The notes: a model not told the origin generated them from the sequence alone. Positions 58 through 61,604 are shown, numbered from the stretch's first letter. The stretch is DNA of 64,000 nt from Bacteroidota bacterium (GCA_006226545.1 SBGR01000061.1:122-64121), one strand, 5' to 3'. Program-made: numbers and translations.

Positions 58-63
58 AGCCGA

Positions 64-1521: not shown

Positions 1522-1526
1522 AAATG

Positions 1527-1534: not shown

Positions 1535-1550
1535 CGCCAATTGTTTCGCG

Positions 1551-26997: not shown

Positions 26998-26998
26998 C

Positions 26999-45704: not shown

Positions 45705-46820
45705 ATGAAAATGACAATCAAGTATGTAGTAGTGCTTTTAGTAGCCCTTTTAAGTTTGGAGGTTAAAGCCGGCGAAACAAAAAAAGAAGTGTATGCCGTA
45801 TTGAATGTAGATGTGAGCGGAACAAATAACGTTGACCGCAAACAGTTGGGGAATATCTTACGAATGCACTTAGAAAAAACCGATTCATTCCAGGTAATTG
45901 ACAAATACGATATGGCTTACCTCTTGGCAGACGAAGCCGATAAATTTGAATACTGTTACGGCAAACTCTGCTTAACTGAATTAGGTAAGAAGATTAAGGC
46001 CGATAAAGTAGTGAGCGGCACTGTAGATGTGATGGGCGACATGATTATCGTGACCCTTCGCAGGGTGGATGTGGCTAGTGGCGAAATTGATAAAACGCTG
46101 GTGAAAGAATACCTCAACCTGACAGTTGAGTTGGGCTATATGCTTCAGATTAGTTTGAATGAGTTATTAGGCTTACCTAACCCGGAAGCCTTGGTGGTGA
46201 GCTTAACTAAAAAAGACGCCTTCGCAAATACACACAATACACCTTTTTCACCACGATTGGCAGTTGACGGACCTCGTTTTGGCATGTCGGGCATCGCCGG
46301 GAAATCGGCTAAGATTTTATTGAGGGAAGAAAACCAAGGCGGATTTAACGCTTACCCCATGAGTTTTCATTTTGGTTACCAGTTTGAAAAGCAGTACCTC
46401 AACGAAGGGAACTTTCAGGCCCTATTTGAATTCATCCCAATGTTAACCGGATTAGAACAAGGTCGTGTTTCTGCCAGCTTCACCTTGATGAACGGCATTC
46501 GCTCTAACCGCAACGGATGGGAGTTTGCCTTTGGTCCGACTATATCAACCGTTAAAATTGCCAACGTTGCACAAGATGCTACCGGCAACTGGTTAACAGA
46601 ATCGATGTGGAAGGAATTGCATCCCGGACTTATGCCGGAGAATGGTTTTAGAAAACAATTGGATAGCAGAGGAGAGATTAAACTGGATGCCGGCTTTGTG
46701 CTCGGTATAGGTAAAACATTCCGCTCCGGTAATTTGAATATTCCGGTCAATCTTTTTGTGGTACCGAAAAAAGACGATTTCAAGTTTGGAATTTCTGTGG
46801 GATACAACTCTTCGCGCTAG
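45705..46820 (+). CDS. Secreted protein with CsgG/LpoB/TolB-N-like N-terminal domain and beta-rich C-terminal domain (possible outer membrane protein)
   Basis: Signal peptide; YAVLNVDVSG...FQVIDKYD...DKVVSGTVDVMGDMIIVTLRRVDVASGEI follows the beta-alpha-beta-beta pattern of the CsgG/LpoB-type fold. C-terminal half has alternating strands (FKFGISVGYNSSR end). Confidence 0.35.
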   Translation: MKMTIKYVVVLLVALLSLEVKAGETKKEVYAVLNVDVSGTNNVDRKQLGNILRMHLEKTDSFQVIDKYDMAYLLADEADKFEYCYGKLCLTELGKKIKADKVVSGTVDVMGDMIIVTLRRVDVASGEIDKTLVKEYLNLTVELGYMLQISLNELLGLPNPEALVVSLTKKDAFANTHNTPFSPRLAVDGPRFGMSGIAGKSAKILLREENQGGFNAYPMSFHFGYQFEKQYLNEGNFQALFEFIPMLTGLEQGRVSASFTLMNGIRSNRNGWEFAFGPTISTVKIANVAQDATGNWLTESMWKELHPGLMPENGFRKQLDSRGEIKLDAGFVLGIGKTFRSGNLNIPVNLFVVPKKDDFKFGISVGYNSSR

Positions 46821-46844
46821 GGAGCGAAGGGTTTATAGAAAGGG

Positions 46845-46870
46845 AAAGCCGGCGTTAAGCCGGCTTTTTT
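46845..46870 (+). terminator. Intrinsic terminator after 45705..46820
   Basis: GCCGGC GTTAA GCCGGC followed by TTTTTT. Confidence 0.65.
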
Positions 46871-47181
46871 ATTTCGTGTTTACTAACCCCTTAGTAAAGA
46901 CAGAATCCCTGTTTCGCGTATGAAATTCACTTAAAAAACGCAGAATGAATACAGAAGGTTGGATAGGGACAAAAAAAAAGCCGGACGGAGCCGGCTGGTT
47001 TTTAACTGAGCAGGTCAAAAACCTATTACGCACTAGGCGCAACCAAACTTAAGGGGCAAGGGGATCAAGTACTTGTTAATAATCAGCACTTTACTAGGTT
47101 CTGAGGTTCATTCCCTTCTGGTTCCTTGTTTGCTTGGTTTCGTATTAGACTACAAAACGAGTTTTCGGTTGCCTAGGTTTG

Positions 47182-47216
47182 AAAAAAAATTTCCGCCGCA
47201 GGGGGCGGAAACTTTT
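47182..47216 (-). terminator. Intrinsic terminator after T9SS paralog C (bidirectional shape)
   Basis: AAAAAAAATTTCCGCCGCAGGGGGCGGAAACTTTT; on the minus strand the stem is followed by TTTTTTTT, 15 nt after the stop at 47231. Confidence 0.65.
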
Positions 47217-47230
47217 CCTGTTATTAAAAA

Positions 47231-50200
47231 CTACTCACTCTTCGTAATCTTATAAACGGTGAAAGCCTGATCAGAGTAGACGTATAAGAAGTATACTCCT
47301 TTAGGTAATTCACCTAAGTATAACTCCAACGAATTGAAATTATTTTCCGTTGTCACCGAAATAATTTTTCCGTTCAGATCTCTTACTTCTGCGTTGATAA
47401 CCGGATTAGCACCATTCGATTCAACGTATAACTTGTCTTTAACCGGGTTCGGGTAAATACGGAAACTGGAGGCTGGCAATTGAACCGAAAGGGTTTTGAG
47501 GTCGATACTTTGTGTGTTCACTTCAAAATTTAACTCATCGCTCGATTCATTGCTTGAATTCAAGGTAACAAAGTAGGTAGCGGTGCTTTTTCCTGGAATA
47601 TCAACGGAAACCTTATAGGTGCCGTAAGCCAAGTCTTTGAATTCATACCTGCCCGCATTGAAGGTATAGGTCACGGCCACAGGCTTATCTTGCGTATCAA
47701 AGAGATTTACTTGAATACCATCTAATCCGGCGCCATTTTTATTAGCCCCCTGACTAATATAGCCTCCAATAAATCCTGGTCCACCTGGATTGGTTCCTAG
47801 AACCATGTCTAGAGTAAAGCCACCATAGGTCCAAATATGATGTTGGTTAGCGTAGAAGTTAGACGAGATTTTATGTCCTCCCGTCCATTGAGTGGAATTT
47901 GTCATGTAGGTAGGGAGGTAATCGGAATAGTATTTAGATCCCGGTAATAACGCACCTTTAATCATGGTATACCCTGTAGAAGGCAAGCAACTGAAGTCGA
48001 CCCAAATTCCTGAATCAACGCCACTATAGAGGGTGATGGAGTCATTGGATCCAATGGTCCAGTTGGTAGAATCAACCGTAATAAAATAGATACGGATGGA
48101 GTCGTAATCATTCAATACCTGACCGTTAAATTGAAGGTATACGAAGTAGTCGTTACTTGCTACTCTACCACAATGGCTTATTTGGAAGTTTCTGCTTCCC
48201 GTACAAACCGGATTTCCGTTGTTGTCGAGTCTAACGCTATTAACCGTAAAGTTGCCGGATTCTGGAAAAACATAGGTTAAACTATCACCCTGAACACTGT
48301 CAACCGTGTTTCCATGGCTGATATACCATTTCATCGCTTGTTGATTAATTACAGCCGGTGGGGCCACAAATTGGAAGGCAAATGAACCAAGTTGATGGAA
48401 TGTTTCGGAACCACACGGGGGGTAACTCGTCACCCATTGCGCAGAACTGTCTTTACACGTGGTTGAATTAATGGTTAGGGTTACCAAATGCGATCCATGC
48501 GTATTAAAGGTTCTTGTTTGAGAAGCGCCAGAGTAGAAACCGGCATTGTCAAAAGTCCAACGGTAGCTTGAACTAGGTAGGCTTTGAAAATCTGCGGTAA
48601 ACGTAAGCTTGTTCGGGGTGATATAATTGGAGCTGAAATTAGCTGTACAAGGAGAGTTTCGTGGAACATATACCTGAATACTGTCCTTTTGATTTACACA
48701 TAAACCGCTGCTGTCGGTCATGGTGAGTCTGATGGTATAATTTCCAGAATCTTTGAAGAAGATGTGTGGGTTACCAAAACCGAGGCTTTGGAAGGTACCG
48801 CCATCTAAATCCCAAGTGTAGATCGCTCTATTTTGGCCCGACAAATAATTCAAAACAGTGCCATTTAAGCTGTATTGAATAAAGTTTGAATCGGCATAAG
48901 GCGTTCTGTTTAACACCAATTTACACTGAGACGTATCGGTGATAAAGATGCTATCAACAGCAGAAGCCGAAGTGAAATTATTGTAGGCATGGTAGTTTAC
49001 ATAATGCCATCCCGGAGTGGTAAACCAGTAAGGGCCCGAGTTTAAGCTGATAAGAGTGTCTGTTTGATCAACCACCATGTATTGTTGGTATTTGTATCCT
49101 TTGCTTGTCTGTTTCAAGGTATACATACCTGTTCCGGCTGTGGCAGGCGTAACGCTATGGCTTAAGATGTAAACCTGGGTATCCAACATCGCGGAGAAGT
49201 TGACTACCAAACTATCGTGGCAACCGTTTCCATTATTCCAAACCAATTTGGCTGTTTTTGCACCGGTATGGCTGAAGATATGGTAAGCTGTTGGTCCGGG
49301 GCGAATGGAATCTTCAATGTACCAGAGGTAGGTATGAAATGGACGGAATCCTTGAAAGGAGAATACATAGCGGAGGCTATCGGAAACGAAGGTATTGTAG
49401 TTTGGTACCGGCGTTGTGCAATCTAGGCCAACACCAACGGTTCGGCTGAAACTATCAATGCAGCTTCCATTCTTAATTTTTAATTTGATGGTAAAACTAT
49501 CCGGCCACTGAAATGTATGGTTAATGCTTGAGCCGCTACCGGTCGTATTGTCTCCGAAGTCCCAAGTATAAGTTGTAGGCAAAGCCGATAATATGGAAGA
49601 AGAATCTTTGCAGTAGGCCGAAGCACTAGTTGGAAGAATATCCCGAACTCCAAAATATGCATCGCAATTTGTATTGATGTAGGCAGTATCATAGCTGGTA
49701 ATGGTGCAGTTGGTGATGTTATCTGTAACGGTATGGCTAATGCCGTAAACACCATCTTGAGTATAGGTATGTGTTGGATTTACGGAAGTGGAGGTTTGTC
49801 CATCGCCAAAAGTCCAGACATGACTTAAATAGGCATGATTTTGAGCTGATTGCAATTGAATATCGCGTAAATTGGATTGAAGCGAAAACTGACTATTGCA
49901 AGGGTAGCTCACGCGTACAGTATCCGTTAAGGTTTCTTCGCAATGGCCGTTGGCTGCTCTAACCCTATGTTGAGCCAAGTAAACCCCGGGTTGAGCATAG
50001 GTATGATTGATAGCGATGGTATTTGAGCTATCGCCATCACCATAAAACCAAGTATGCTGTAAGCTTTGATGATAGCTAACAGGGTAAAACGAGGATGTCA
50101 GGGCAGTATCGTAGTGGTTGAATGCCGCATTGCACTGGGGGCTACAGTGTAAAGTGATGTTGATATTGACATAGTTCCCCGTATAACTGGTGGTATAGGT

Positions 50201-50485
50201 TTTCCAGATTCCGCAATCTTGGTAATTCACCGTAATCTGATTGCCGGTATATCCGGAACTTACCACAAAACTATCTACGCGGTATCCTCCCGAAGCATAG
50301 CTTCCGGTGAGGCTCAGTGCATTTGGATTAGCCGTACTATCACTATTCCGAATGGATGCGTTCACAGTGAAGTTTGGCGCTACATTAAAGGTGTCTGCAA
50401 AGGAGACACTCACGGATAGGTATTGGGCTTTTGCTGTTCCTAAAAGGAATAAACTAAAGAGGCATAAAAGTAGGAGACGTTTCAT
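47231..50485 (-). CDS. T9SS type A C-terminal sorting-domain cargo protein, PKD-rich, paralog C (about 1084 aa)
   Basis: Signal peptide MKRLLLLCLFSLFLLGTAKAQ; W.FGDG PKD-like motifs; conserved module GGYISQGANKNGAGLDGIQVNLF...GRYEFKDLAYGTYKV (CarboxypepD_reg/SdrD-B-like); C-terminal Por_Secre_tail-like ...KLYVESNG...AEVRDLNGKII...LPKGVYFLYVYS... ORF track start 50524 is an upstream in-frame extension. Confidence 0.8.
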   Translation of the reverse strand: MKRLLLLCLFSLFLLGTAKAQYLSVSVSFADTFNVAPNFTVNASIRNSDSTANPNALSLTGSYASGGYRVDSFVVSSGYTGNQITVNYQDCGIWKTYTTSYTGNYVNINITLHCSPQCNAAFNHYDTALTSSFYPVSYHQSLQHTWFYGDGDSSNTIAINHTYAQPGVYLAQHRVRAANGHCEETLTDTVRVSYPCNSQFSLQSNLRDIQLQSAQNHAYLSHVWTFGDGQTSTSVNPTHTYTQDGVYGISHTVTDNITNCTITSYDTAYINTNCDAYFGVRDILPTSASAYCKDSSSILSALPTTYTWDFGDNTTGSGSSINHTFQWPDSFTIKLKIKNGSCIDSFSRTVGVGLDCTTPVPNYNTFVSDSLRYVFSFQGFRPFHTYLWYIEDSIRPGPTAYHIFSHTGAKTAKLVWNNGNGCHDSLVVNFSAMLDTQVYILSHSVTPATAGTGMYTLKQTSKGYKYQQYMVVDQTDTLISLNSGPYWFTTPGWHYVNYHAYNNFTSASAVDSIFITDTSQCKLVLNRTPYADSNFIQYSLNGTVLNYLSGQNRAIYTWDLDGGTFQSLGFGNPHIFFKDSGNYTIRLTMTDSSGLCVNQKDSIQVYVPRNSPCTANFSSNYITPNKLTFTADFQSLPSSSYRWTFDNAGFYSGASQTRTFNTHGSHLVTLTINSTTCKDSSAQWVTSYPPCGSETFHQLGSFAFQFVAPPAVINQQAMKWYISHGNTVDSVQGDSLTYVFPESGNFTVNSVRLDNNGNPVCTGSRNFQISHCGRVASNDYFVYLQFNGQVLNDYDSIRIYFITVDSTNWTIGSNDSITLYSGVDSGIWVDFSCLPSTGYTMIKGALLPGSKYYSDYLPTYMTNSTQWTGGHKISSNFYANQHHIWTYGGFTLDMVLGTNPGGPGFIGGYISQGANKNGAGLDGIQVNLFDTQDKPVAVTYTFNAGRYEFKDLAYGTYKVSVDIPGKSTATYFVTLNSSNESSDELNFEVNTQSIDLKTLSVQLPASSFRIYPNPVKDKLYVESNGANPVINAEVRDLNGKIISVTTENNFNSLELYLGELPKGVYFLYVYSDQAFTVYKITKSE

Positions 50486-50541
50486 AAGCTGTAGGTCTTT
50501 GTAATTAGACTTCAAGATGGTCAATGGGTTGCCTGCAATAG

Positions 50542-50574
50542 AAAAAAAAGCCGACCCCTCAGGCCGGCTCTTTC
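50542..50574 (-). terminator. Intrinsic terminator after T9SS paralog B
   Basis: AAAAAAAAGCCGACCCCTCAGGCCGGCTCTTTCT; on the minus strand the stem AGCCGGCC/GGTCGGCT is followed by TTTTTTTT. Near-identical copy at 53948-53980. Confidence 0.65.
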
Positions 50575-50577
50575 TGC

Positions 50578-53500
50578 TTACTGTTTAACGATGCGTATTC
50601 GACTGAGGTAGGTTTCATCACCGGCCGTAAGTAAATACACTCCGGATGGTAAGGCACTCAAATCAAGTTCGATTTCCGTATCGCTATAGCGATTTGGTTG
50701 AATCGCAATTTGCTTTCCGTTCACATCGCGTAATTCTGTCCATTTTAAGGGGTACTTGCTCGTACTAGCAATGCGCACTTTTCCCGTAGTTGGGTTTGGA
50801 TACGCTTTGAAAACGCTCGACTTTATCACGGCCAAATGGTTGATCACACCAATGTCTTTGCTGTTGATTTCAAAATCAATATCGTCTACAGATTTAGTGC
50901 TTTGGCTTAGCGTCACATAATGAATAGAAGGAAGTTTTCCCGGAATCTCTACCATGAGTTTATAGCTTCCATACGGAATATTATTGAACTCATACCTTCC
51001 GGCATTGAAGCTATAGGTATAGGTCACAGGCTGATCATCCAGGGTATACAGATTGATTTGGATACCGTCTAGTCCGGCGCCATTTTTATTGGCTCCTTGG
51101 CTCACATAACCACCGATGAATCCAGAGCCGCCCGGGTTATTTCCCCTCCGCATATTGATGTTGGCAAATTGGTAACCAATGCGATTCACATAATGGTTTG
51201 CATTGCTCCACAAGGTGGCAGAATCAGAATAGGTAGGCAGAAAATCACTGTAGTATTTGCTTCCGGCCATGCATGCAGCCTTTACCAAAATAGGTCCTTG
51301 CACACAAGTCAAATTGAAGTGGAAAAAGCCGGTATCCGTATTTCTCAAGGTCATGGAATCATAAGCCGCTAAAATGCCTAAGCTGCTGTTATAGGTAATT
51401 ACGTATACTTTAAGAGAATCAAAGTCAGCTCTTAAGGTATCATCAAATGAAACTTGGCCTAACAAGATTTGATAGGATTGACCTAGAAGTCCGCAGTTAT
51501 TCAAGGTAAGGCTAGTTGTCTTAATGCAGCTCGTACTAGCCGCATTGTTTGATGGATCAACCGCAGTAGCTTTAACCATATAATTGCCTTGACTAGCATA
51601 AACATGTGAAATGGTATCGCTTGCAGTTATTTGAATGGTGCCATCTCCAAAGTCCCAACGGGTGCTTGAGAAATTGGAAACAGTGCTGCCTCGCTTAAAC
51701 AAGATTTCATAAGGCAGGGTTTGAGAGTAGTTAAAGTTCGCATTGCAATTAGCATTGGAATAGATGGTCAACTGAGAACTTTGAATACAACCTTGACTTG
51801 TCTTGAAGATGGTAAGTTTAACCGTTTTTAGACCGGTTGTACTGTATTCGTGCACCGGGTATTTCAAATTACTGATGGAGCCATCTCCAAAGTCCCACGC
51901 ATAGGTGTCGGCTAAGGTATCAGTTGGGGTGAACCTGTATTTGGCTGTGCTTATAGCATGGGCATTGAATGTAGCGATACAGTTACCGCCGTTTTGCGCA
52001 TTGGTGATGGACATTATCGTATCTGCACTTAACGAACATAAGCCTAGGCTATCATTTACCTCAAGTTTTACTTGGTATTGGCCATTGTATTGGTAAGTAT
52101 GCGTTGTACTTGAATATTCGTTATCCAAACTATCACCATCTCCAAATACCCAATGGTACTTGAGCTTTAATCCAATGGCGGAATAGTGCGAATTATTGTA
52201 GGCGATATTGGAATAGTAACTCACCTTGCCACTCGGGCTGGAGTATTGACTTTTCGTGATTTTCCGATCCGGACTCCCAAAATAACATTGATTACTTTGA
52301 CTTTGAACAGTTACCGTTAGCGAGTCTCTGAAATTGGCATTCCATACCACCATTTTTACCTGGTAGGTGCCGGCTTGCAGGTACCAATGCGACTTATAAT
52401 TAAAATTGGTATAGCGGAATCCGGTGGAGTCCCGTGTTCCGTCGCCGTAGTCTATGTACCCGCCGGTTTTGTATCCTTTACCGAAACCTAAGAAGCTAAA
52501 GAATCCGGAATTCTCGCCATGCGTTATTCGAATGGAGTCGAGAACCAAAGAGCTATCGTAAGGCATTCGAACTCGGTAGTTAAAACTGTCCAAACAATTG
52601 AGTTTATTATCGAGGTATAAGCGAATATCCACGCTGTCTTGCGAAACGGAGGTATACGCACTTGAATACCCGTTAGAACGGCTGTTGTCAGGCCATTTCC
52701 AAGAATAGTCTGCTCCATTGATAACGTCTGTATAATTTACGTAGATGGAATAGTTCTGTCCGTATGGCGCATACTGTTGGCTCAAGTTGATTAGCGGCTT
52801 ACGGCAATCCATGCCTACCGAGTCTTGTCTGTAAGCGGTATCAATGCAGGTTCCATTTTGCAATATGAGTCTCACCGTTTTAACACCCGGGCTATTGAAA
52901 CCTAAATGGATGGTTCCATTGCTTGTATAGGTATTGCCGCTTTCTGTTTCCCAGTAGAAACGAGTAAAATAACTTGAGTTGTAAGTGGAAGAGTCTATAG
53001 TGACAAGGTTATTGATGGTATTGCCATCCCTTAAGCCAAATTTAGCCTCACACGAATTGTTCACGTAGACCATATAGGTTTGCGATTTATAACAGCCGTT
53101 TCCGCTAATGGTATGGACTACACTGTACGCACCATATTGCGAATAAGTATGTGTTGGATCTATGGAATTACTGGTGCTGCCATCGCCGAAGTTCCATGTA
53201 TGATTCCAGCTTTGATCTTTGTATCTCGATTTAAAATCCACTTTGAGTTCTTCACCTCTGTATTCAAAATCTGCAGAACAGGGGATATTGATGTAGAGGG
53301 TACTTCGGGCTGTGTCTGAACAACCCAATTGGGCATTGCTTACGATATGGACTATGTCATAGCTACCGGAAGTGAAATAAAAATAACTCGGTGAAGTTTG
53401 AGTTGACGTAGCACCATTGCCAAAATCCCAGAAGTGCGAATAGCCTGAAAGTTGTTGGTGCGGGGTAAATTGAATAAGCTGATTGTTCGTTGAGCCGATA

Positions 53501-53874
53501 TTGTATCCGGCAAAACATGGAGGATCACATGGCAGGGTGATAACAAGATTTAAATACCAATTAGATGAGCTAAAGAAGGTATCGATCTTATGCCAAGAAC
53601 CGCATGCAAAGTAGTTGATGGTGATAAGCCTGGAAGTATAAGAAGTGGTGGTATAAAATGAATCTGCCGCTACTCCGGGTCCAAGGTATACGCCATTGTA
53701 TTGAAAGGCTTGGGTTACGGTTGCGCTATCTGAGTTGTTTACAGAAGTAGGCACTGCAACAGGCCAATTACCATTATTGGCATCCTTGTATTCAATATAG
53801 ACGCCTCCGCTAGATTGGGCATTGGCGGAGAGCATCCATAACAGGCAAACTATAGATAAGATGAGCTTTTTCAT
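50578..53874 (-). CDS. T9SS type A C-terminal sorting-domain cargo protein, PKD-rich, paralog B (about 1098 aa)
   Basis: Signal peptide MKKLILSIVCLLWMLSANAQ; same N-terminal CG.W...PC.P.C.A(G/F)N motifs, same C-terminal GANKNGAGLDGIQINLY...GRYEFNNIPYGSYKL module and CTD as paralogs A and C. ORF track start 53943 (GTG) includes a 23-aa extension across the terminator. Confidence 0.8.
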   Translation of the reverse strand: MKKLILSIVCLLWMLSANAQSSGGVYIEYKDANNGNWPVAVPTSVNNSDSATVTQAFQYNGVYLGPGVAADSFYTTTSYTSRLITINYFACGSWHKIDTFFSSSNWYLNLVITLPCDPPCFAGYNIGSTNNQLIQFTPHQQLSGYSHFWDFGNGATSTQTSPSYFYFTSGSYDIVHIVSNAQLGCSDTARSTLYINIPCSADFEYRGEELKVDFKSRYKDQSWNHTWNFGDGSTSNSIDPTHTYSQYGAYSVVHTISGNGCYKSQTYMVYVNNSCEAKFGLRDGNTINNLVTIDSSTYNSSYFTRFYWETESGNTYTSNGTIHLGFNSPGVKTVRLILQNGTCIDTAYRQDSVGMDCRKPLINLSQQYAPYGQNYSIYVNYTDVINGADYSWKWPDNSRSNGYSSAYTSVSQDSVDIRLYLDNKLNCLDSFNYRVRMPYDSSLVLDSIRITHGENSGFFSFLGFGKGYKTGGYIDYGDGTRDSTGFRYTNFNYKSHWYLQAGTYQVKMVVWNANFRDSLTVTVQSQSNQCYFGSPDRKITKSQYSSPSGKVSYYSNIAYNNSHYSAIGLKLKYHWVFGDGDSLDNEYSSTTHTYQYNGQYQVKLEVNDSLGLCSLSADTIMSITNAQNGGNCIATFNAHAISTAKYRFTPTDTLADTYAWDFGDGSISNLKYPVHEYSTTGLKTVKLTIFKTSQGCIQSSQLTIYSNANCNANFNYSQTLPYEILFKRGSTVSNFSSTRWDFGDGTIQITASDTISHVYASQGNYMVKATAVDPSNNAASTSCIKTTSLTLNNCGLLGQSYQILLGQVSFDDTLRADFDSLKVYVITYNSSLGILAAYDSMTLRNTDTGFFHFNLTCVQGPILVKAACMAGSKYYSDFLPTYSDSATLWSNANHYVNRIGYQFANINMRRGNNPGGSGFIGGYVSQGANKNGAGLDGIQINLYTLDDQPVTYTYSFNAGRYEFNNIPYGSYKLMVEIPGKLPSIHYVTLSQSTKSVDDIDFEINSKDIGVINHLAVIKSSVFKAYPNPTTGKVRIASTSKYPLKWTELRDVNGKQIAIQPNRYSDTEIELDLSALPSGVYLLTAGDETYLSRIRIVKQ

Positions 53875-53947
53875 AGGCTTGAATTTTATGTTGGACAGAA
53901 TTTGGCACTGAGGGTTGCCTCCGTTTCGATAAAGAATCAACACGCAT

Positions 53948-53980
53948 AAAAAAAGCCGACCCTCAGGCCGGCTCTTTCTC
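53948..53980 (-). terminator. Intrinsic terminator after T9SS paralog A
   Basis: AAAAAAAGCCGACCCTCAGGCCGGCTCTTTCTC; same hairpin as at 50542. Confidence 0.65.
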
Positions 53981-53993
53981 TCTCGCTAAATAA

Positions 53994-55991
53994 TTACTGT
54001 TTAATGATGCGCAATCGGCTAATCAGCTGGTCGTTGCCGGCTTCTATCAGGTATACACCCGATTCTAATCCGCCCAAATCCAACTCCAATTTATCCGGTC
54101 CGGCCTGACGCATTTGCACCACGCGAACCTTACCTTGAATGTCCATCACGCGCACAAAGGTCAGCTCTTCACCCAGTGTACTTTCTATCGTGAGCTTCTC
54201 CGCCACCGGGTTAGGGTAGGCTTTGAAAAGGTTCGCACGTACGGCAAACGCAGAATTCAATACACTGATATCGGTTGAGTTCACCTCAAAATTGAGGTCG
54301 TCTGCACTTTGTTTCGCTTGACTCAAAGTAACGTAGTGTATAGACGAGGTCTTGCCCGGAATCTCCACCAAAACCTTATAGCTGCCCAGAGCTAAGTTGC
54401 TAAACTCATACCTGCCTGCATTGAAGGTAGTGGCAAAAGCGACGGGTTGATCCGTTGCGGTAAACAGCGTCACCTGTATCCCGTCTAGTCCGGCACCGTT
54501 TTTATTGGCTCCTTGGTTGATATAGCCACCAATAAATCCCGGTCCGCCCGGATTGGTTCCGGCAATCATGTGAATCTGAATTCCGAAATTGTTATTCGGG
54601 TTGAACTCCCTTGCCGCCGACCACAATACAGCGCTATCTGCATAGGTAGGAAGGTAGGAGCTATACAGTGATGAACCCGGCATTAATGCGGCTTTAAAGA
54701 GGTTACGTTGGTTGTAATCGCAGTCTTCAAAATAGAACCAGCCGGAGTCTTGGTTGTAAATCACCAAAGAGTCTAAGGCGGTTAAAGTTTGGTTTACAGA
54801 ATCGTAAGCGATGCGGTAAACTTTAGCCGAATCATAGGCCGTCATGAAGGAAGTAGGGAAGATAACCTGCCCGTGGTAACCCGCCGGGAATCCTACTTTA
54901 CCGCAGTTGTTCAATACCGTAGATTGTGTGGTATAGCAGGCTTGAACATTGTTCACCAATACATTGCAACGGAAGCCAAAGTTCCCTGCACCAGGTAAAG
55001 TCACCGTGATATTATGTCCTGTAACCGTTGAATTGATGCCCGGTCCGGAGATAACCCATTCCGAGGTGCCTACGCTTGAATCGTTGCGGGTGAGCCTGAA
55101 CTGAAATGGACTAAGCCAAGTTTTGGTAAAGGATGCATCGCAGTTTTGTGTTACGGTATTAAAGGTCCTGAAGGTGCTGTCAATACAACCTTGCCCGAAA
55201 ATAGTGAGATATGCGGTATAGGTATTTGCAGCGGCATATTGGTGGTAAATGGTGTCAACCGCGGAGGAGGTGAAATTCTGCATGTTGCCATCGCCAAAAT
55301 TCAGTTGGCAGTTTCTGCCTGCAGGCCAAGTATTGGCAATAAACTCAACGTTATTATTGCTCATCACATTGTAGTCGAGGTTGGTAGTGCAAGAGCTGTC
55401 GACGAAAATCATTTGTACCGAAGAATCTTGGCAATAAGAGCCTTGCTTCACCGTATGTGCTAAGAGGTGATTTCCGGCTCCGGTGATGTATTGACCGTGC
55501 GTTCTGCTGTTGGAGATAAGCACATTGTCGAGGTACCAAGCATGTGCTGAGTTAACATCGGTTGAAGACATGCTCAGGTAGCTAAACATATCGATGCCGT
55601 AGTTAAAGCTAGCATCGCAGGTATAGGTGCAGGGTAAGGTAAATACGTGAGCGATGGTACTGTTTTGACTTAAGACGGTGTCAAACTGAACGGTTGTTCC
55701 ACAGACGTTCACAGAAAAGGAAATTTGGTTGCCGGTATAACTGGCAGGAATCGTTACCGAATCAATGATGCGGTAGGTGCCGGTATTGCCGCCGTAATAG
55801 CCGGAATAGGCCATGTCGTAAAAAGCTTGTCCGTTGGTGCTGGAATCGGTGTTGGTGACTTCCAAGGTTAGATTGCTTGGCCATAAGTTGCCGTTAGCAT
55901 CCTTGAAAGTCATCTCATAGTACTGAATAAATTGGGCCTGAGCGGTCCAAGCGCTGATGAGGAACATCAGCAGTAAACTAAGTTTTTTCAT
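53994..55991 (-). CDS. T9SS type A C-terminal sorting-domain cargo protein, paralog A (665 aa)
   Basis: Signal peptide MKKLSLLLMFLISAWTAQAQ; shared N-terminal and C-terminal modules (GGYINQGANKNGAGLDGIQVTLF...GRYEFSNLALGSYKV) and CTD (KLTIESTLGEELTFVRVMDIQGK...LESGVYLIEAGN). Starts 27 nt after the GT2 stop. Confidence 0.8.
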   Translation of the reverse strand: MKKLSLLLMFLISAWTAQAQFIQYYEMTFKDANGNLWPSNLTLEVTNTDSSTNGQAFYDMAYSGYYGGNTGTYRIIDSVTIPASYTGNQISFSVNVCGTTVQFDTVLSQNSTIAHVFTLPCTYTCDASFNYGIDMFSYLSMSSTDVNSAHAWYLDNVLISNSRTHGQYITGAGNHLLAHTVKQGSYCQDSSVQMIFVDSSCTTNLDYNVMSNNNVEFIANTWPAGRNCQLNFGDGNMQNFTSSAVDTIYHQYAAANTYTAYLTIFGQGCIDSTFRTFNTVTQNCDASFTKTWLSPFQFRLTRNDSSVGTSEWVISGPGINSTVTGHNITVTLPGAGNFGFRCNVLVNNVQACYTTQSTVLNNCGKVGFPAGYHGQVIFPTSFMTAYDSAKVYRIAYDSVNQTLTALDSLVIYNQDSGWFYFEDCDYNQRNLFKAALMPGSSLYSSYLPTYADSAVLWSAAREFNPNNNFGIQIHMIAGTNPGGPGFIGGYINQGANKNGAGLDGIQVTLFTATDQPVAFATTFNAGRYEFSNLALGSYKVLVEIPGKTSSIHYVTLSQAKQSADDLNFEVNSTDISVLNSAFAVRANLFKAYPNPVAEKLTIESTLGEELTFVRVMDIQGKVRVVQMRQAGPDKLELDLGGLESGVYLIEAGNDQLISRLRIIKQ

Positions 55992-56018
55992 AGGTTGCGA
56001 TTTTACTTTTAGACAACA

Positions 56019-57134
56019 CTATGCGTAGTGGGTTGTCTCAAAATCGCGACCCTTCCATTTTTTTTTGCTCGGTAAAAGGAAATAGATCGGGGTTACCAAT
56101 GAGAGGAAAACGGAGTAAAACTCGTAGAATACAAAACGCAAGAAGCTGCTTTTCTGTCCAACCAAAATACTCAATGTGCTGAGGGCAAAAGACTGAATCA
56201 AAAAACGGGTGAACCAGAGGTAAAGGGCCATCTGCGGAAAGAAGATCAAGCCTAAAATCAGAAAGGGTTGAAATGATCCGAAGAGCACCAACAGCATTTT
56301 CCAATACAAAGGCAAACCTTGTCCGCCCGTAAGCCAACGTTTTCTTTGCTGCATCAAGGTGCCCCAGGTTGGAGCAGGTTCGGAGCCATTGGTATTGGCC
56401 GCTTCACAGAGGTGAATGGCCTTCCACCCGGCTTCTTTTATCGCTTTATACAAAAGGAAATCTTCAGTGATGCTGAAGGGCAGTTTCTCATAACCGCCGG
56501 TAGCCCAATAGGCCTCTTTTCGCACAGCCATATTATTTCCCACCGCTGTGGCGCCCAGTCCAACACGGTCGAACGCAAAGAGTATCCCCATAAAATACAG
56601 CCAATCCAAATGCTGCATCCGGGCAAACCCTGATTTACCGCTGATGGTTGTTGTGGCACTCACGCAGCCAATACCTTCTGTAAACCTTGGCATCATGGAG
56701 CTCACCCAGGTAGTGGGCACTTCAATATCGGCATCGGTAATAAAGAAAAAGTCACCCTGAGCTGCATGGGCTAGATGGGCTAATACATTGGCCTTCTTGC
56801 GGGCATTGCCCAATTCCGATTCAATCTCAATCAGCTTAAAACGCGGATCTTTATCGCAAAAGGCTTGCACCAATTCTGCTGTGCGGTCTTCGCTTTGGTC
56901 GTTGCCAATCAGAAACTCCAAACGGTCTGCCGGGTAATCCAGCTGAGCCAAACTCGCTAAACAGGCCATGATGTGTTCTTCTTCGTTGCGCGCTGCCACC
57001 AGCACGCTTACCAAAGGGTAGCTTTCATTTTTCGACTTCTTTTCATCGGCTTTGCCAAAGGCCTGCAATAACATCGCTAGCACAAAAGCCTGAACAAACA
57101 AGTAGAGGAAAAGCGGAATCAGTAATAGAATCAC
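56019..57134 (-). CDS. Processive membrane family-2 glycosyltransferase (NodC/PgaC/IcaA/BcsA-like synthase)
   Basis: N-terminal TM, GT2 domain with DxD (FITDADIEV), G....R (GNNMAVRKEAY), TED (SITEDFLL) and Q.xRW (LMQQRKRWLTGG) motifs, then three or four C-terminal TMs. GTG start overlaps the deacetylase stop (GTGA). Confidence 0.8.
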   Translation of the reverse strand: MILLLIPLFLYLFVQAFVLAMLLQAFGKADEKKSKNESYPLVSVLVAARNEEEHIMACLASLAQLDYPADRLEFLIGNDQSEDRTAELVQAFCDKDPRFKLIEIESELGNARKKANVLAHLAHAAQGDFFFITDADIEVPTTWVSSMMPRFTEGIGCVSATTTISGKSGFARMQHLDWLYFMGILFAFDRVGLGATAVGNNMAVRKEAYWATGGYEKLPFSITEDFLLYKAIKEAGWKAIHLCEAANTNGSEPAPTWGTLMQQRKRWLTGGQGLPLYWKMLLVLFGSFQPFLILGLIFFPQMALYLWFTRFLIQSFALSTLSILVGQKSSFLRFVFYEFYSVFLSLVTPIYFLLPSKKKWKGRDFETTHYA

Positions 57135-57745
57135 AGGGCCTTGAATTGAAATCCGCGTTGGTGAAAATGTTCGAGGTAATCAGGCAATAGCTGAATCAAA
57201 TTATGCCGCGCTTTTTCGCTGTCGTGAAACAGGATAATCGACCCGGCCTCGCTGTGTTTCTTCAAAGCATAAGCACTTTCGGCCACGTCTAAATCTTTCT
57301 CGTAATCGCGTGAAAGTAAGGTCCACATGATCACTTTATAATCCGACTTCTTCAGTTTCAAAGCTTGCAAGGGCCCAATTTTGCCGTAAGGCGGACGAAA
57401 CAATTTGGTGTCGGTTAAGGCCTCACATTGTTCAATATTGGAGAGGTAAAAATCGTTTCCCGACTTCCACCCGTTCAGGTGGTTGAAGGTGTGGTTACCT
57501 AGCGAATGTCCTTCGGCTTGAATACGTTCTACCACCTCGGGGTAACGTTCTACATTGTCGCCAACACAGAAGAAGGTAGCCTTGGCTTGGAAGGCATTAA
57601 GTTGGTCCAAAACCCAAGGCGTAATCTCCGGGTGCGGGCCATCATCAAACGTAAGGTAGATAACAGGTTCTTTCTCTTTACTCACCTTCCAAGTGAGCAA
57701 AGGATTGAAGAGTTGAAATATTCCCGGTGTTGTATACCGATACAT
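57131..57745 (-). CDS. NodB-homology polysaccharide deacetylase (cytoplasmic; no signal peptide)
   Basis: All NodB-domain motifs present: TFDDGP, HSLGNHTFNH, RPPYG, LFHD. 204 aa, as for NodB/chitooligosaccharide deacetylases. Confidence 0.85.
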   Translation of the reverse strand: MYRYTTPGIFQLFNPLLTWKVSKEKEPVIYLTFDDGPHPEITPWVLDQLNAFQAKATFFCVGDNVERYPEVVERIQAEGHSLGNHTFNHLNGWKSGNDFYLSNIEQCEALTDTKLFRPPYGKIGPLQALKLKKSDYKVIMWTLLSRDYEKDLDVAESAYALKKHSEAGSIILFHDSEKARHNLIQLLPDYLEHFHQRGFQFKAL

Positions 57746-57817
57746 TTTTTGATTTTATCGAGCCTCGCTCAGTCATGACAAAGAATTTATTTCCTTTGTT
57801 GCTGGAGATTAAGCCCT

Positions 57818-59242
57818 ATGCCTAACGCAAAGATAATTTTATCCTTCACTTTACTGCTCCTTCTCATTAGCCCGGCTCAGGCACAGAAGGCGTGGACCTT
57901 GGAGGAATGTATTAGTCATGCGCATCAAAATAACCTGAACATCAAACTTCAGGAGATCAATGTGCAGACGGCTAAAATCAATTTAACCGAGGCGCGTATG
58001 CAGCCACTGCCGAGCTTAAATGCTACGGTGAATCAAGGTTATAACTTCGGACGTTCCATCGACCCTTTTACCAACCAGTTTGTGGTGTCGAGCTTGAGCA
58101 ATTCCAGAGCGAGTTTGTCTACCGGTATTACGCTCTTCAACGGTTTCCAGATTTACAATAACATGCAGTCGCGCAAGCACCTTTTCACGGCTAGCAAGTT
58201 CGATTTGGAGGTGAGTAAAAACGACCTCGGACTCAATATCGCTAATGCCTACCTGCAGGTCCTTTTCGCTAAAGAACTGGTGAAAAGCAATGAAGCACGT
58301 TTGCAAAGCAGCGAGGTGCAATTGCAGACCCAACAGAAATTTAAAGAAGCCGGACGGGTGGCTGAAAATGCTGTACTCGATATGGAGGCCCAGGTGGCCA
58401 ACGATAAACTCAATTTGGTGAATGCGCAGAATCAGCTCACCATGGCGAACCTTTCACTTTTTCAGTTTCTAGACCTAAACCCCGACAGCAATCAAGTGGC
58501 TGTTCCCGCCTTGGATTCCATTCCGGATGCCGGCGTGTTTAGCGCAGACCAATTGTATACTGCGTATGTGCAGTACGCACCTGAGTTGAAGGCAGCCAAT
58601 GCCCGACTCGAATCCGGTATCTACAGCTTGAGAGCAGCACGCGGCGCCTATTATCCTCGTTTGCTTTTGGGTGCCGATATCAATACTGTTTATTCGGAAA
58701 GTAACTTGCAACGCAGTTCCAGTGTTTTGGGTTACAGCCGATTGTACGATGCCAATGGCAATGTGATTAGCACCGTTCCGGTAAATACGTTTACAAGCGA
58801 TGGGGTAACGCCATTCTCTCGTCAGCTTTCAGATAACCTTGGACAGACGGTGGGTTTCTCACTCAGCATCCCGATTTTCAATAATTACCGCACCTTGGCT
58901 TCGGTAAAACGGGCGCATCTCAGTTATGAAAGCACGCGCATCAATAGCCTGCTCACGGAAAATACCTTGAAGCGTCAGATTACCCAGGCCTATACCGAAT
59001 ACACGGCTGCTAAGAGTCGCTATACCGCTTCGAAACAAAGTATGGACGCCCAGAAAGCGAGTTTAGACAATGCAGCGAAAAGACTAGCGGCCAACTTGAT
59101 TAGCACGGCTGATTACCGCGTATTGCAAAGCAATTATGAGGTGGCCGAGACCAATTATATTCAAGCGAAATACGAGCTCATGTTTCGCTATAAAATCATC
59201 GACTTTTACAAACACGGAAGTATAAAAGCGCCAAACGAATAA
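57818..59242 (+). CDS. TolC-family outer membrane efflux protein
   Basis: Signal peptide ending AQAQ, two long coiled-coil/helical repeats with intervening beta segments; 474 aa. Confidence 0.85.
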   Translation: MPNAKIILSFTLLLLLISPAQAQKAWTLEECISHAHQNNLNIKLQEINVQTAKINLTEARMQPLPSLNATVNQGYNFGRSIDPFTNQFVVSSLSNSRASLSTGITLFNGFQIYNNMQSRKHLFTASKFDLEVSKNDLGLNIANAYLQVLFAKELVKSNEARLQSSEVQLQTQQKFKEAGRVAENAVLDMEAQVANDKLNLVNAQNQLTMANLSLFQFLDLNPDSNQVAVPALDSIPDAGVFSADQLYTAYVQYAPELKAANARLESGIYSLRAARGAYYPRLLLGADINTVYSESNLQRSSSVLGYSRLYDANGNVISTVPVNTFTSDGVTPFSRQLSDNLGQTVGFSLSIPIFNNYRTLASVKRAHLSYESTRINSLLTENTLKRQITQAYTEYTAAKSRYTASKQSMDAQKASLDNAAKRLAANLISTADYRVLQSNYEVAETNYIQAKYELMFRYKIIDFYKHGSIKAPNE

Positions 59243-59246
59243 GGCT

Positions 59247-60557
59247 ATGGCTAAGAAGAAAAACAGAAAATGGATTTACATCGGTGGCGCATTGATCATC
59301 GTTTTTGGAACTTTGGTAGCGGTTAAGGCAAACCAAAAAACCAAACACGCCGTAAGCGTTGCCAAGGCCGAAGAAGCACAGATTACTGAGATTGTGGCTG
59401 CCAATGGTGTAGTACAACCGGAAGTGGAAGTGAAAATCAGCTCGGAGGTATCGGGTGAGATTGTAGACTTATACGTGAAAGAAGGCGATTCAGTAAAAGC
59501 CGGCATGCTGCTTTTGCAGGTGAATCCGGATATCAGCCAAAGTAACGTGGAACGCGCCATGGCTTCGGTACAAAATGCCAGAGCCAATTTTGAAGCGAGC
59601 AAAGCACGACTTGGTCAGGCGCAGGCTCGATTTAAGCAAGTGCAAGAGCAATTCAAACGCAACGAAAAACTGTTTAGAGAAAAGGTAATTGCCGAGGCTG
59701 AATACCAAATCTCCCGTGCCGATTTTGAAAGTGCCGAAGGCGAAGTTTCAGCAGCAGAGAAGGCCGTTGAAGCAGCTCGGTATACCGTAAAAAGTTTGGA
59801 GTCAACCTTAAGCGGCGAACAAAAGAGTTTGCAAAGAACCAGCATCTATGCGCCAATGGACGGCATCGTTTCTAAGCTGAATGTGAAAAAGGGCGAACGT
59901 GTTTTGGGTACCATTCAGATGTCGGGAACGGAACTTTTGCGCATCGCCGATTTCTCCAGCATGGAGCTAAACGTTGATGTAGGAGAAAGCGATATCATCC
60001 GCGTTAAAGTGGGCGATACCGCAGAGATAGAAGTAGACGCACACGATAAAGTGATCTTCAAAGGCGTGGTTCGGGAAGTAGCCAACTCGGCGAAGAACTT
60101 GGGCGTAAGCACCACAGACCAAGCCACCAATTTTGAAGTGAAGATCAGCATCTTGCCTTCTTCCTATGCGGAGTTGAAAGCCAAGTATCCAGACAAAGCA
60201 TCGCCATTTTTTCCGGGTATGTCGGGCATGGCTGAAATACACACCAATACTGTACGTAATGCCATTGCGGTTCCCATCGAAGCGGTAAGTACCCGTCAGC
60301 GCACGGATAGCACGGATAAAAAAGGAGAAAGCAAGACTACTGAAATAGTGTTTAAATTTGTCGACGGAAAAGCCGTTGAGGTGAAGGTGAAAACCGGTAT
60401 CCAAGACAATAACCTGATCCAGATTTTGGAAGGTGTTGACACGGGGATGCAGGTGATTACCGCACCGTACTTCTTGGTTGCCAAAGACCTTAAAGATGGC
60501 GACGAAGTAATGATTACGGACAAGGACAATTTGTACAAAAACACGAAGAAAGATTGA
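59247..60557 (+). CDS. HlyD/MacA-family periplasmic adaptor subunit (membrane fusion protein)
   Basis: N-terminal TM (WIYIGGALIIVFGTLVAV), biotinyl-lipoyl-like segment, long coiled-coil hairpin, beta-barrel and membrane-proximal domains (GIVSKLNVKKGERV...). Confidence 0.85.
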   Translation: MAKKKNRKWIYIGGALIIVFGTLVAVKANQKTKHAVSVAKAEEAQITEIVAANGVVQPEVEVKISSEVSGEIVDLYVKEGDSVKAGMLLLQVNPDISQSNVERAMASVQNARANFEASKARLGQAQARFKQVQEQFKRNEKLFREKVIAEAEYQISRADFESAEGEVSAAEKAVEAARYTVKSLESTLSGEQKSLQRTSIYAPMDGIVSKLNVKKGERVLGTIQMSGTELLRIADFSSMELNVDVGESDIIRVKVGDTAEIEVDAHDKVIFKGVVREVANSAKNLGVSTTDQATNFEVKISILPSSYAELKAKYPDKASPFFPGMSGMAEIHTNTVRNAIAVPIEAVSTRQRTDSTDKKGESKTTEIVFKFVDGKAVEVKVKTGIQDNNLIQILEGVDTGMQVITAPYFLVAKDLKDGDEVMITDKDNLYKNTKKD

Positions 60558-61552
60558 AGATAGCGGTTATTGGTGGCGGTAGTTGGGCCACAGCACTGGT
60601 TAAATTAATTAGCGATAAAGGGCTGGGCAAAGGCATTGAACTCACCTGGTGGTTGCGCCGCCAAGAGAGCATTGAGCACCTCAAGAAATACAAACACAAC
60701 CCGGATTACCTCAGTTCGGTGGTATTGCCAACCGAGCAGATCAATTTAACTACTTCATTGCCCGAGGCCATTGCCGATGTGGAGATGGTTATCTTAGCCA
60801 TTCCTTCGGCCTTCCTCTACGATCAACTCCAAGAACTTCCGGAGGATGCCTTCCAAGGTAAATGGGTGGCAAGCGCCATCAAAGGAGTGGTTCCGCAAAC
60901 CTATGAGGTGGTTGGAACCTACCTGAAGAACCGTTTCAAGATGCCGGAGAAGGACCTTTTGGTGATAGGCGGTCCTTGCCATGCTGAGGAGGTGGCGCTG
61001 GAAAAACTTTCTTTCTTAACCATCGCTTCAGGCTCACAGGCTAGTGCAGACAAGCTTGCTGCTATTCTGGAGTCGCGCTTCTTGAAAACCTCCACCAGCC
61101 TTGATTTGTACGGAACTGAATATGGCGCTGTTTTGAAAAATGTCTATGCCATCGCTAGTGGCATCTGCCACGGCTTAGGTTATGGCGATAATTTCCAGGC
61201 GGTATTGATGAGCCAAGCCATCAAAGAGATGGAGTATTTCTTGGATCAGGTGAGTCCGATGGAACGTGATGTAAACGACCACGTCTACTTGGGCGATTTG
61301 CTCGTTACAGCGTATTCCCAGTTTTCTCGTAACCGCACCTTTGGTAACATGATAGGCAAAGGCTATAGCGTCAAGTTTGCGCAGCTGGAGATGAACATGG
61401 TGGCAGAAGGTTATTATGCTACCAAGAGCATGCACGAGCTTCTTTGGAAGCTCAAAATCAATATGCCAATTCTGGAGGCCGTTTACAATATCATCTACCA
61501 GAATGCCATTCCGAAAAATGAGGCTCGCCGCCTGATAGAAACATTTGACTAA
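60554..61552 (+). CDS. gpsA: NAD(P)H-dependent glycerol-3-phosphate dehydrogenase
   Basis: KIAVIGGGSWATALVKL Rossmann motif and C-terminal GpsA region (NFQAVLMSQAIKEM...). TTG start overlaps the MFP stop. Confidence 0.93.
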   Translation: MKIAVIGGGSWATALVKLISDKGLGKGIELTWWLRRQESIEHLKKYKHNPDYLSSVVLPTEQINLTTSLPEAIADVEMVILAIPSAFLYDQLQELPEDAFQGKWVASAIKGVVPQTYEVVGTYLKNRFKMPEKDLLVIGGPCHAEEVALEKLSFLTIASGSQASADKLAAILESRFLKTSTSLDLYGTEYGAVLKNVYAIASGICHGLGYGDNFQAVLMSQAIKEMEYFLDQVSPMERDVNDHVYLGDLLVTAYSQFSRNRTFGNMIGKGYSVKFAQLEMNMVAEGYYATKSMHELLWKLKINMPILEAVYNIIYQNAIPKNEARRLIETFD

Positions 61553-61604
61553 AAGATGATGTTGCGCTGACATTGTGCCGTGGGCAAGATTTTACCTTTG
61601 GTCC

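Follow-up and report, generated by a model that had tools for sequence, protein, structure and literature searches.

A conserved deacetylase-GT2 and TolC-adaptor gene module of Bacteroidota with a possible role in glucosamine-lipid formation

Results

Two back-to-back operons encode a deacetylase, a glycosyltransferase, a TolC protein and an adaptor

We analyzed a 64,000-nt stretch of DNA from a Bacteroidota bacterium, referred to herein as the window, to whose full length all coordinates refer unless a locus is named. It carries a carbohydrate esterase family 4 (CE4) deacetylase gene that overlaps the gene for a membrane glycosyltransferase of family 2 (GT2), and on the opposite strand, across a short gap, genes for a TolC-family outer-membrane factor and a MacA-like periplasmic adaptor (membrane fusion protein, MFP). 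Comparison with related loci showed that the conserved unit consists of two back-to-back operons, deacetylase-GT2 and TolC-MFP, the latter often running into gpsA. The features of the region, including three genes for predicted cargo of the type IX secretion system (T9SS), are as follows:

57131-57745, minus strand: CE4 (NodB-homology) deacetylase, 204 aa; Polysacc_deac_1 match of 96 bits
56019-57134, minus strand: membrane GT2, 371 aa; Glycos_transf_2 and Glyco_transf_21 matches
57746-57817, no strand: divergent intergenic gap, 72 nt
57818-59242, plus strand: TolC-family outer-membrane factor, 474 aa; signal peptide and two OEP matches
59247-60557, plus strand: MacA-like periplasmic adaptor (MFP), 436 aa; N-terminal membrane anchor
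60554-61552, plus strand: gpsA (glycerol-3-phosphate dehydrogenase); NCBIfam subfamily model above cutoff
53994-55991, minus strand: T9SS cargo paralogue C, 665 aa; clade-specific passenger
50578-53943, minus strand: T9SS cargo paralogue B, 1121 aa; PKD-rich, Por_Secre_tail
47231-50524, minus strand: T9SS cargo paralogue A, 1097 aa; PKD-rich, Por_Secre_tail

A preliminary description of this DNA had reported eight genes here, and all eight open reading frames (ORFs) were reproduced at the same coordinates in an ORF map of the window annotated with Pfam and NCBIfam, including the five consecutive minus-strand genes at 47231-57745. The 72-nt length of the divergent gap was likewise confirmed, and Pfam and NCBIfam agreed with the assignment of the plus-strand genes to a TolC-family protein and an HlyD-family adaptor that run straight into gpsA, whose start overlaps the MFP stop. 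The deacetylase and the GT2 are a translationally coupled pair, as had been proposed: the deacetylase stop and the GT2 start overlap in a GTGA read directly from the sequence, and this 4-nt overlap is repeated in approximately 40 of 56 loci. A Pfam scan of the window ORFs of at least 150 aa, all but a few of them covered, revealed no ATP-binding cassette (ABC), resistance-nodulation-division (RND) or major facilitator superfamily (MFS) pump, which is consistent with the earlier view of the TolC-MFP pair as pump-less.

The four-gene module recurs in different genomic contexts

Gene neighborhoods were compared in 80 loci taken from species-representative genomes with a GT2 profile, which gave 575 confirmed stretches in such genomes, and were scored by tblastn. 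Counts per gene were corrected for truncated flanks, hence their varying denominators. This GT2-centered sample and a deacetylase-centered sample described below are both ranked by similarity to the query and their loci are phylogenetically non-independent; because a simple caller set the ORF starts of the fetched loci, their intergenic lengths are approximate.

In the GT2-centered sample the deacetylase gene was adjacent in 62 of 77 loci, a divergent TolC gene was present in 50 of 71, an MFP gene in 41 of 66, and gpsA followed the MFP gene in 25 of 64. Where the deacetylase was present with enough flanking sequence, TolC accompanied it in 47 of 54 loci and TolC and MFP together in 41 of 54. 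The order was invariable, with TolC followed by MFP on one side of the gap and the deacetylase followed by GT2 on the other, in 23 different outer contexts. When the GT2 proteins were clustered at 55% identity, the full module was found in 13 of 17 clusters, the deacetylase with TolC in 15 and the deacetylase in 16, while one cluster (15 loci) carried the GT2 alone in a context of peptidylprolyl isomerase and MoxR-like genes. A search centered on the MFP (homologues of 47-52% identity) also recovered the full module, in L081 and L082/L083. Since the four genes stay together in 13 of 17 clusters and across 23 outer contexts, and were recovered from the MFP as well, the link between them is supported. 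TolC and MFP thus co-occur with the GT2-deacetylase pair beyond close relatives, the neighborhood check that had been suggested for this locus. Of the single linked system that had been envisaged, the deacetylase-GT2 pair and the pump-less TolC-MFP pair stood, and the T9SS genes, which co-occur in only 5 of 80 loci, did not.

The MFP-centered search also revealed loci that keep the deacetylase divergent from TolC-MFP without a GT2 (L084/L089 and L088). As the deacetylase-TolC junction is retained in these loci, it is the most persistent element of the module, and the deacetylase is the module's hub. Other recurrent neighbors of the GT2 are related to glycerolipids: lgt lies directly after the GT2 gene in approximately 20 loci, and a DAGK_cat/YegS-type lipid kinase gene lies beside lgt in approximately 15 (e.g. 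L012:11118-12785). No PgaD- or BcsB-like partner and no PgaA porin was found in the window or in the 80 GT2 loci.

The deacetylase-centered sample comprised 80 loci, obtained by scanning metagenomes with a deacetylase profile headed by the sequence from L084. Here TolC was adjacent in only 8 of 46 loci and a GT2 in 4 of 55, and the module is thus not universal; as the sample was ranked by likeness to the deacetylase of a lineage whose GT2 is unlinked, these counts are biased against the module. In 19 of these loci (among them L096, L098, L117, L134, L141, L149 and L157), the deacetylase gene is preceded, in the same orientation, by a gene for a TMEM260-like (PF11028) GT-C glycosyltransferase of approximately 1,090 aa; the two are 0-22 nt apart in 13 of these loci. 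The second dominant context has gltX on one side of the deacetylase and an unassigned gene followed by TatD on the other. The deacetylases cluster by context; identity between groups (43-45%) is close to that within groups (47-52%), which fits one orthologous family whose neighborhood differs by lineage. GT-C enzymes use lipid-phosphate-linked sugar donors, and their coupling to the deacetylase suggests a route through a lipid-linked amino sugar in those lineages, similar to the Arn and Lgm pathways. No GT-C gene was found near the module in the window or in the GT2-centered loci.

The deacetylase is predicted to act in the cytoplasm

The preliminary description had credited the deacetylase with all five NodB motifs. 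Its catalytic residues are conserved, with TFDDGP, H85/H89, R117-P-P, D147 and H174 at least 95% conserved in 57 homologues of 182-229 aa; the fourth motif is a variant (SRDY). The enzyme is 29% identical to Sinorhizobium meliloti NodB, scores 95 bits against a NodB model with a cutoff of 240, and has peptidoglycan N-acetylglucosamine (GlcNAc) deacetylases as its closest solved relatives. The Kyte-Doolittle maximum of its N-terminus is 0.69, compared with approximately 2.5 for the N-termini of TolC, MFP and GT2, and none of the 57 homologues has a signal peptide or hydrophobic N-terminus, in keeping with the earlier reading of this protein. The missing signal peptide predicts a cytoplasmic enzyme, in which case deacetylation would have to precede export. 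PgaB, annotated in the E. coli pga locus as a 672-aa deacetylase/hydrolase, acts outside the cytoplasm. Since the deacetylase studied here, unlike PgaB, has no signal peptide, the secreted, partly de-N-acetylated polymer resembling poly-N-acetylglucosamine (PNAG) that had been proposed as the product is unlikely in that form.

The GT2 lies between lipid glycosyltransferases and polysaccharide synthases

The GT2 belongs to a family with 1,572 matches at E<1e-10, mostly 360-385 aa long and approximately 45% identical. The motifs for which it had been called a processive β-glycan synthase, DxD, TED and QQRKRW, are genuine: D134xD136, T223-E-D225 and Q263-R-K-R-W267 are invariant in 18 of 18 homologues and at least 90% conserved in 81. 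A C-terminal W360-K-x-R363 motif (WKGR in the window protein) is conserved to the same degree. The same D..D..TED..QxxRW set is common to non-processive lipid glycosyltransferases, so the motifs alone do not settle processivity. Nor does the enzyme fall in the NodC/PgaC size class, as had been stated, since its 371 aa are fewer than those of NodC (426) or PgaC (441) and match the 373-position model of the hopanoid GlcNAc-transferase HpnI.

Profile comparisons place the enzyme between groups. In Pfam, Glycos_transf_2 ranks first (71.0 bits) and Glyco_transf_21 second (69.8), 1.2 bits apart, and no Chitin_synth_2 match is present. The Glyco_transf_21 gathering score of 21.7 is passed by the window GT2 and also by NodC and PgaC (47 bits). 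The window protein scores higher on Glyco_transf_21 than on Glyco_tranf_2_3 (69.8 versus 51.4 bits), whereas the reference NodC, PgaC and Bacillus GT2 proteins score far lower on Glyco_transf_21 (47-52 bits) than on Glyco_tranf_2_3 (90-116 bits). The top NCBIfam match is HpnI, at 74.3 bits against a cutoff of 310 and covering model positions 17-363 of 373; for calibration, NodC, PgaC and the Bacillus GT2 reach only 37-44 bits on this model, with partial coverage. The window GT2 scores 72.0 bits on the PgaC_IcaA model (cutoff 422.3; E. coli PgaC itself scores 648) and 44.2 bits on the NodC model (cutoff 550). By sequence, its best match of solved structure is ceramide glucosyltransferase (62.6 bits, E 2.7e-16), with BcsA at approximately 31. 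An hhalign comparison with PgaC gave 99.2% probability over 314 columns that include the membrane part, and 86-90% of the GT2 aligned with NodC in tblastn. Among plasmid records, its relatives were only NodC, PgaC/HmsR and CelA (24-29% identity), and these records yielded no HpnI or Pgt references.

The AlphaFold model of the GT2 (pLDDT 89, pTM 0.87) has one N-terminal helix, a GT-A domain, an interface helix bearing QRKRW and three further long helices. Few residues of the membrane helices are at least 90% conserved across the 81 homologues (W278, F288, K/R310, Q314 and Y340), and the C-terminal membrane part alone gave no meaningful match in the PDB, either as a single sequence or as a 16-sequence profile. 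Together these comparisons point to a distinct family of small membrane enzymes, lying between the GT21/HpnI lipid glycosyltransferases and the PgaC/NodC synthases, and its product cannot be assigned from sequence.

Among the proteins tested, the closest relative of this family outside the phylum is encoded on a Bacillus thuringiensis plasmid (NZ_CP151868.1), where a gene for a 433-aa GT2 lies directly 3' of one for a 251-aa annotated diguanylate cyclase (L087:4084-6137).

The TolC-adaptor pair has no adjacent pump

The TolC-family protein matches OEP at 169 bits, in two repeats, and type_I_sec_TolC at 125 bits. The adaptor matches RND_mfp at 160 bits, MacA at 100 bits (cutoff 342) and DevB at a sub-threshold level; among solved structures it matches MacA best, over residues 2-283 with the N-terminal anchor included, and its family is annotated with a YknX-type barrel and C-terminal domains. 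No inner-membrane pump gene lies beside the MFP gene in any of approximately 50 loci, and no MacB-type permease or ATPase was present among the scanned window ORFs. Instead the MFP gene is followed by gpsA, a gene for a DUF2279 protein, genes for small membrane proteins, pyrE-like genes or others. MacA-type adaptors normally partner MacB-type ABC pumps with periplasmic domains. The MacA/YknX type of the adaptor therefore favors an unlinked ABC partner and speaks against the GT2 as the inner-membrane component.

The L084 and L089 loci, which are 100% identical and from the same organism, carry gldA, gldF and gldG after the deacetylase gene on the same strand, beside TolC-MFP-gpsA (L084:741-6503). 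Two short FGE-sulfatase genes lie between gldA and gldF, and the Gld proteins score above their NCBIfam cutoffs. Gld proteins form a gliding-motility ABC-2 transporter, and GldAFG was considered as the missing inner-membrane pump. As a linked partner this candidate was rejected, though Gld proteins might serve the pair from an unlinked position, since four other gldG loci (43-54% identity) have no deacetylase, TolC, MFP or GT2 gene within 10 kb. The placement of gldAFG beside the deacetylase is a single-lineage arrangement, unsupported as a conserved association.

The divergent gap contains a promoter-like site

The strongest promoter-like site of positions 46800-61700, TTGTCA-18-TAAAAT (57781-57752, minus strand), is found within the 72-nt gap, directed toward the deacetylase gene. 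Its -10-like hexamer overlaps a TCGATAAA/TCGATTAA motif (57754-57761, minus strand). The motif TCGATAAA, in the general form TCGA[TC]TAA, precedes the deacetylase gene in 20 of 60 loci, compared with approximately 0.013 expected per locus, at -16 in L002, L003, L005 and L052 and at -38 to -107 in L019-L079. Since the pattern was set after it had been seen, and the loci are related, this motif is only a lead. No RNA family was found in the window with Rfam.

The T9SS genes are confined to the clade of the window

The three genes downstream of the GT2 had been described as PKD-rich T9SS cargo paralogues. All three proteins carry Por_Secre_tail and CarboxypepD_reg/SdrD_B domains by Pfam, are 30-43% identical among themselves and have signal-peptide-like N-termini, features that identify them as true paralogues and type A T9SS cargo. 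The label PKD-rich fits the two larger proteins; in the 665-aa paralogue C the PKD match is only sub-threshold. A 27-nt gap in which no terminator was found separates the GT2 gene from that of paralogue C, and the two are possibly co-transcribed. T9SS genes follow the GT2 in only five of the 80 loci (L001, L002, L003, L005 and L052, with one to three paralogues each); in other GT2 clusters TatD, lgt, MeaB, PNPase or a different gene takes that place. As they are limited to the clade of the window, the T9SS proteins are best seen as local passengers. Two further ORFs of the window recall the same secretion system. A 1,456-aa PKD protein (7301-11671) carries a CHU_C (type B) T9SS signal, a sorting class unlike that of the three type A paralogues. 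The other, a 403-aa ORF (62589-63800) that only the closest relatives retain next to these genes, partially and weakly (41 bits, cutoff 180) resembles the C-terminal region of the T9SS motor protein PorM/GldM.

Elsewhere, the window is ordinary Bacteroidota chromosome. Downstream of gpsA, a 317-aa ORF (61575-62528), whose matches to zinc-dependent phospholipase C and S1/P1 nuclease both fall below threshold, is found at the same place throughout the clade of the window (59-64% identity in L001-L005 and L052). A Wzx/Wzy-type glycan locus occupies 55-3997, with a Polysacc_synt flippase (55-1521), a 336-aa ORF and a Wzy_C/O-antigen-ligase-like protein (2561-3997). At 25210-27640, approximately 30 kb from the module and with no evident link to it, a gene for a TPR-containing HisKA_3 histidine kinase is overlapped by one for a LuxR-type response regulator.

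Discussion

No earlier account of this module in Bacteroidota turned up in the literature that we searched, and several known systems share parts of it. The preliminary description had known of no such combination described as a unit in Bacteroidota; a claim of no precedent does not hold, as rhizobial mixed-linkage glucan and cyanobacterial cellulose have systems built from a GT2 synthase, an HlyD-type adaptor and TolC (PMC13438883). The BgsA-BgsB-TolC and cyanobacterial cellulose synthase-HlyD-TolC systems share with the module a D,D,D,QxxRW GT2 linked to an HlyD-family adaptor and TolC without a classical pump. However, BgsA is described as a synthase of greater size that has several transmembrane domains and binds cyclic di-GMP through a domain at its C-terminus (PMC13438883), whereas the GT2 here has 371 aa, approximately four helices and no regulatory domain. 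The module also differs from Bgs in its additional, predicted cytoplasmic deacetylase and its MacA-type adaptor. MacAB-TolC and DevBCA-HgdD share an adaptor closest to MacA and an adjacent TolC, but their MacB/DevC-type permease and ATPase are missing from every locus examined.

Among systems that pair a glycosyltransferase with a deacetylase, NodB-NodC shares a cytoplasmic CE4 deacetylase of approximately 200 aa encoded directly upstream of a membrane GT2, but the module lacks NodA and the adjacent NodIJ-type ABC-2 exporter and has TolC-MFP as its neighbor instead. PgaABCD and IcaADBC share the GT2 superfamily and a CE4-type deacetylase; the module has neither PgaD/IcaD nor the PgaA porin, and its deacetylase is predicted to be cytoplasmic rather than periplasmic. 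With HpnI-HpnK, the GT2 is colinear over the full length of HpnI and of the same size, and the two-step logic is the same, but its score is 74 bits against a cutoff of 310 and no hopanoid genes lie nearby. HpnK belongs to a deacetylase family other than CE4. Of the components of the Arn and Lgm pathways (an ArnC/LgmA-like GT2, a cytoplasmic deacetylase and a GT-C transferase), the module has the predicted cytoplasmic deacetylase, of the CE4 family; the GT2 here is not ArnC-like (23 bits), and GT-C genes occur only in the deacetylase loci of other lineages. GpgSDF, which forms glucosaminyl-phosphatidylglycerol in Pseudomonas (PMC12713373), and HexSDF, which forms a C. difficile aminoglycolipid (PMC10128005), likewise combine a glycosyltransferase and a deacetylase to yield an amino-sugar lipid, and GpgD is predicted to be cytoplasmic (PMC12713373), as is the module deacetylase. 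In contrast, GpgS is a GT4 enzyme (PMC12713373) and HexS is annotated as a monogalactosyldiacylglycerol synthase (PMC10128005), neither being a QxxRW-type GT2, and both operons have a flippase and no TolC-MFP, the reverse of the module. On these comparisons the unit appears to fall outside Pga/Ica, NodBC, HpnIK and MacAB-TolC, and to resemble Bgs/Xcs in genetic architecture only.

The best reading of the module, to which we assign a probability of roughly 40%, is that it forms a lipid-linked product in which GlcNAc is converted to glucosamine, with TolC-MFP tied to this pathway and energized by an ABC-type partner encoded elsewhere. At the cytoplasmic face of the inner membrane, the GT2 would transfer GlcNAc from UDP-GlcNAc to a membrane lipid acceptor, which could be a glycerolipid or a carrier lipid. 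The deacetylase would then remove the acetyl group at the same face, giving a glucosamine-bearing lipid or lipid-linked intermediate. TolC and MFP, which share the 72-nt promoter region and are probably co-regulated with the deacetylase-GT2 pathway, may export the product to the outer membrane or serve as a co-regulated envelope defense, and their inner-membrane ABC-type energizer would be encoded at another locus. We infer which sugar and which lipid acceptor are used, and how TolC-MFP is tied to the pathway.

We prefer this lipid-linked product because the deacetylase is predicted to be cytoplasmic, the membrane part of the GT2 is small and poorly conserved, and the GT2 shows affinity to HpnI over its full length and to ceramide glucosyltransferase. 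Further support comes from the operon-like arrangement of deacetylase orthologues with GT-C genes, from the glycerolipid neighbors (gpsA, lgt and the DAGK/YegS-type kinase) and from known glucosamine-lipid pathways. In HpnI/HpnK, GlcNAc is transferred to a lipid and then de-N-acetylated (PMC12583986), in GpgS/GpgD a GlcNAc-lipid and then a glucosamine-lipid are formed in two steps (PMC12713373), in HexS/HexD a GlcNAc-lipid is formed and deacetylated (PMC10128005), and Lgm applies the same logic of GlcNAc transfer and deacetylation to lipid A (PMC4993483). On the lipid side, the only hint comes from reports of uncharacterized aminoglycolipids in polar-lipid profiles of Bacteroidota (PMC9076710). 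The absence of a PgaD- or BcsB-like partner, the MacA-type adaptor and the conservation of the module also count in its favor.

Several observations weigh against a lipid-linked product. On the same GT2 family profile, PgaC scores higher (75.7 bits) than ceramide glucosyltransferase (62.6), with NodC at 46.6, and the B. thuringiensis plasmid GT2 reaches 132.9 bits over nearly its full length. The nearest solved folds of the GT2 model are processive synthases, with a TM-score of 0.72 for hyaluronan synthase and approximately 0.58 for BcsA, in a Foldseek PDB library that predates the ceramide glucosyltransferase entries. The GT2 is also not ArnC/GtrB-like (23-35 bits, ArnC at 23), which weakens the variant with a carrier lipid. 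Finally, the module contains no flippase or ABC gene, and a lipid product therefore needs unlinked partners where a synthase would be self-sufficient. The assignment of the GT2 to the processive β-glycan synthases, which its motifs had suggested, is thus not established. The matches to ceramide glucosyltransferase and HpnI go part of the way toward a non-processive family, an outcome named in advance as contrary to that assignment, and are countered by the PgaC profile score.

A first alternative, which we consider rather doubtful, is that the genes have no direct functional link and represent slowly decaying ancestral synteny, with TolC-MFP serving MacB-type efflux pumps encoded elsewhere. 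Every pair has been found apart (GT2 alone, deacetylase-GT2 without TolC, and deacetylase-TolC-MFP without GT2), the deacetylase-centered counts for TolC and GT2 are low, and unrelated housekeeping genes, gpsA and TatD, recur as neighbors, which indicates that synteny persists in this region. Yet the four-gene core is kept in 13 of 17 clusters at 40-50% identity while the outer flanks vary 23 ways, the deacetylase-TolC junction outlasts the loss of GT2, and the deacetylase-centered sample that yields the low counts is biased against the module.

The main rival, although unlikely, is a pump-less tripartite glycan exporter close to the system first proposed, in which a processive GT2 would act as the inner-membrane component docking MFP and TolC, with NodB-like deacetylation at the cytoplasmic non-reducing end. 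No other model makes the four genes self-sufficient, and this one uniquely accounts for the absence of a pump in approximately 50 loci. It also agrees with the hyaluronan synthase- and BcsA-like fold, the hhalign match to PgaC and the alignment with NodC, with a gene order and gene sizes that mirror nodB-nodC, and with the GT2-MFP-TolC precedent of BgsAB-TolC and cyanobacterial cellulose (PMC13438883). However, a polymer translocated during its synthesis would be out of reach of a cytoplasmic deacetylase, and approximately four helices with little conservation would make a poor channel. The GT2 also scores far below the PgaC (72 versus 422) and NodC (44 versus 550) cutoffs, the MFP has a membrane-proximal C-terminal domain and is of the MacA/YknX type that works with ABC pumps having periplasmic domains, and TolC-MFP and GT2 are apart in several lineages. 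Still less probable is the full form of this idea, a self-contained, ATPase-free trans-envelope machine in which the GT2 would polymerize a glycan of GlcNAc and glucosamine and partner the MacA-like MFP and TolC.

Finally, the earlier suggestion that the T9SS proteins bind or anchor the GT2 product is very improbable, since for all the terminator-free junction and the paralogues after GT2 in all five closest relatives, 75 of 80 loci and all other GT2 clusters lack them, and Pfam detected no lectin or carbohydrate-binding domain in them.

The module is apparently undescribed and would be a variant either of the two-step glucosamine-lipid logic, here tied to TolC-MFP, or of the synthase-MFP-TolC principle. 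Its GT2 also serves as a caution against naming a processive polysaccharide synthase from the D,D,D,QxxRW set alone. If the product is an amino-sugar lipid, the module would supply a gene basis for the aminoglycolipids of Bacteroidota and a cationic-lipid route to the control of envelope charge, comparable to MprF, Arn, Hex and Gpg. If the GT2 is instead a synthase, the recently recognized GT2-MFP-TolC secretion principle would gain both a new phylum and an amino-sugar product, and a self-contained machine would imply a previously unrecognized surface or secreted chitosan-like glycan in Bacteroidota. Either way, the module offers a substrate or partner context for an orphan TolC-MacA pair and, if the link between its genes is functional, would represent a widespread, unstudied envelope system of the Bacteroidota.

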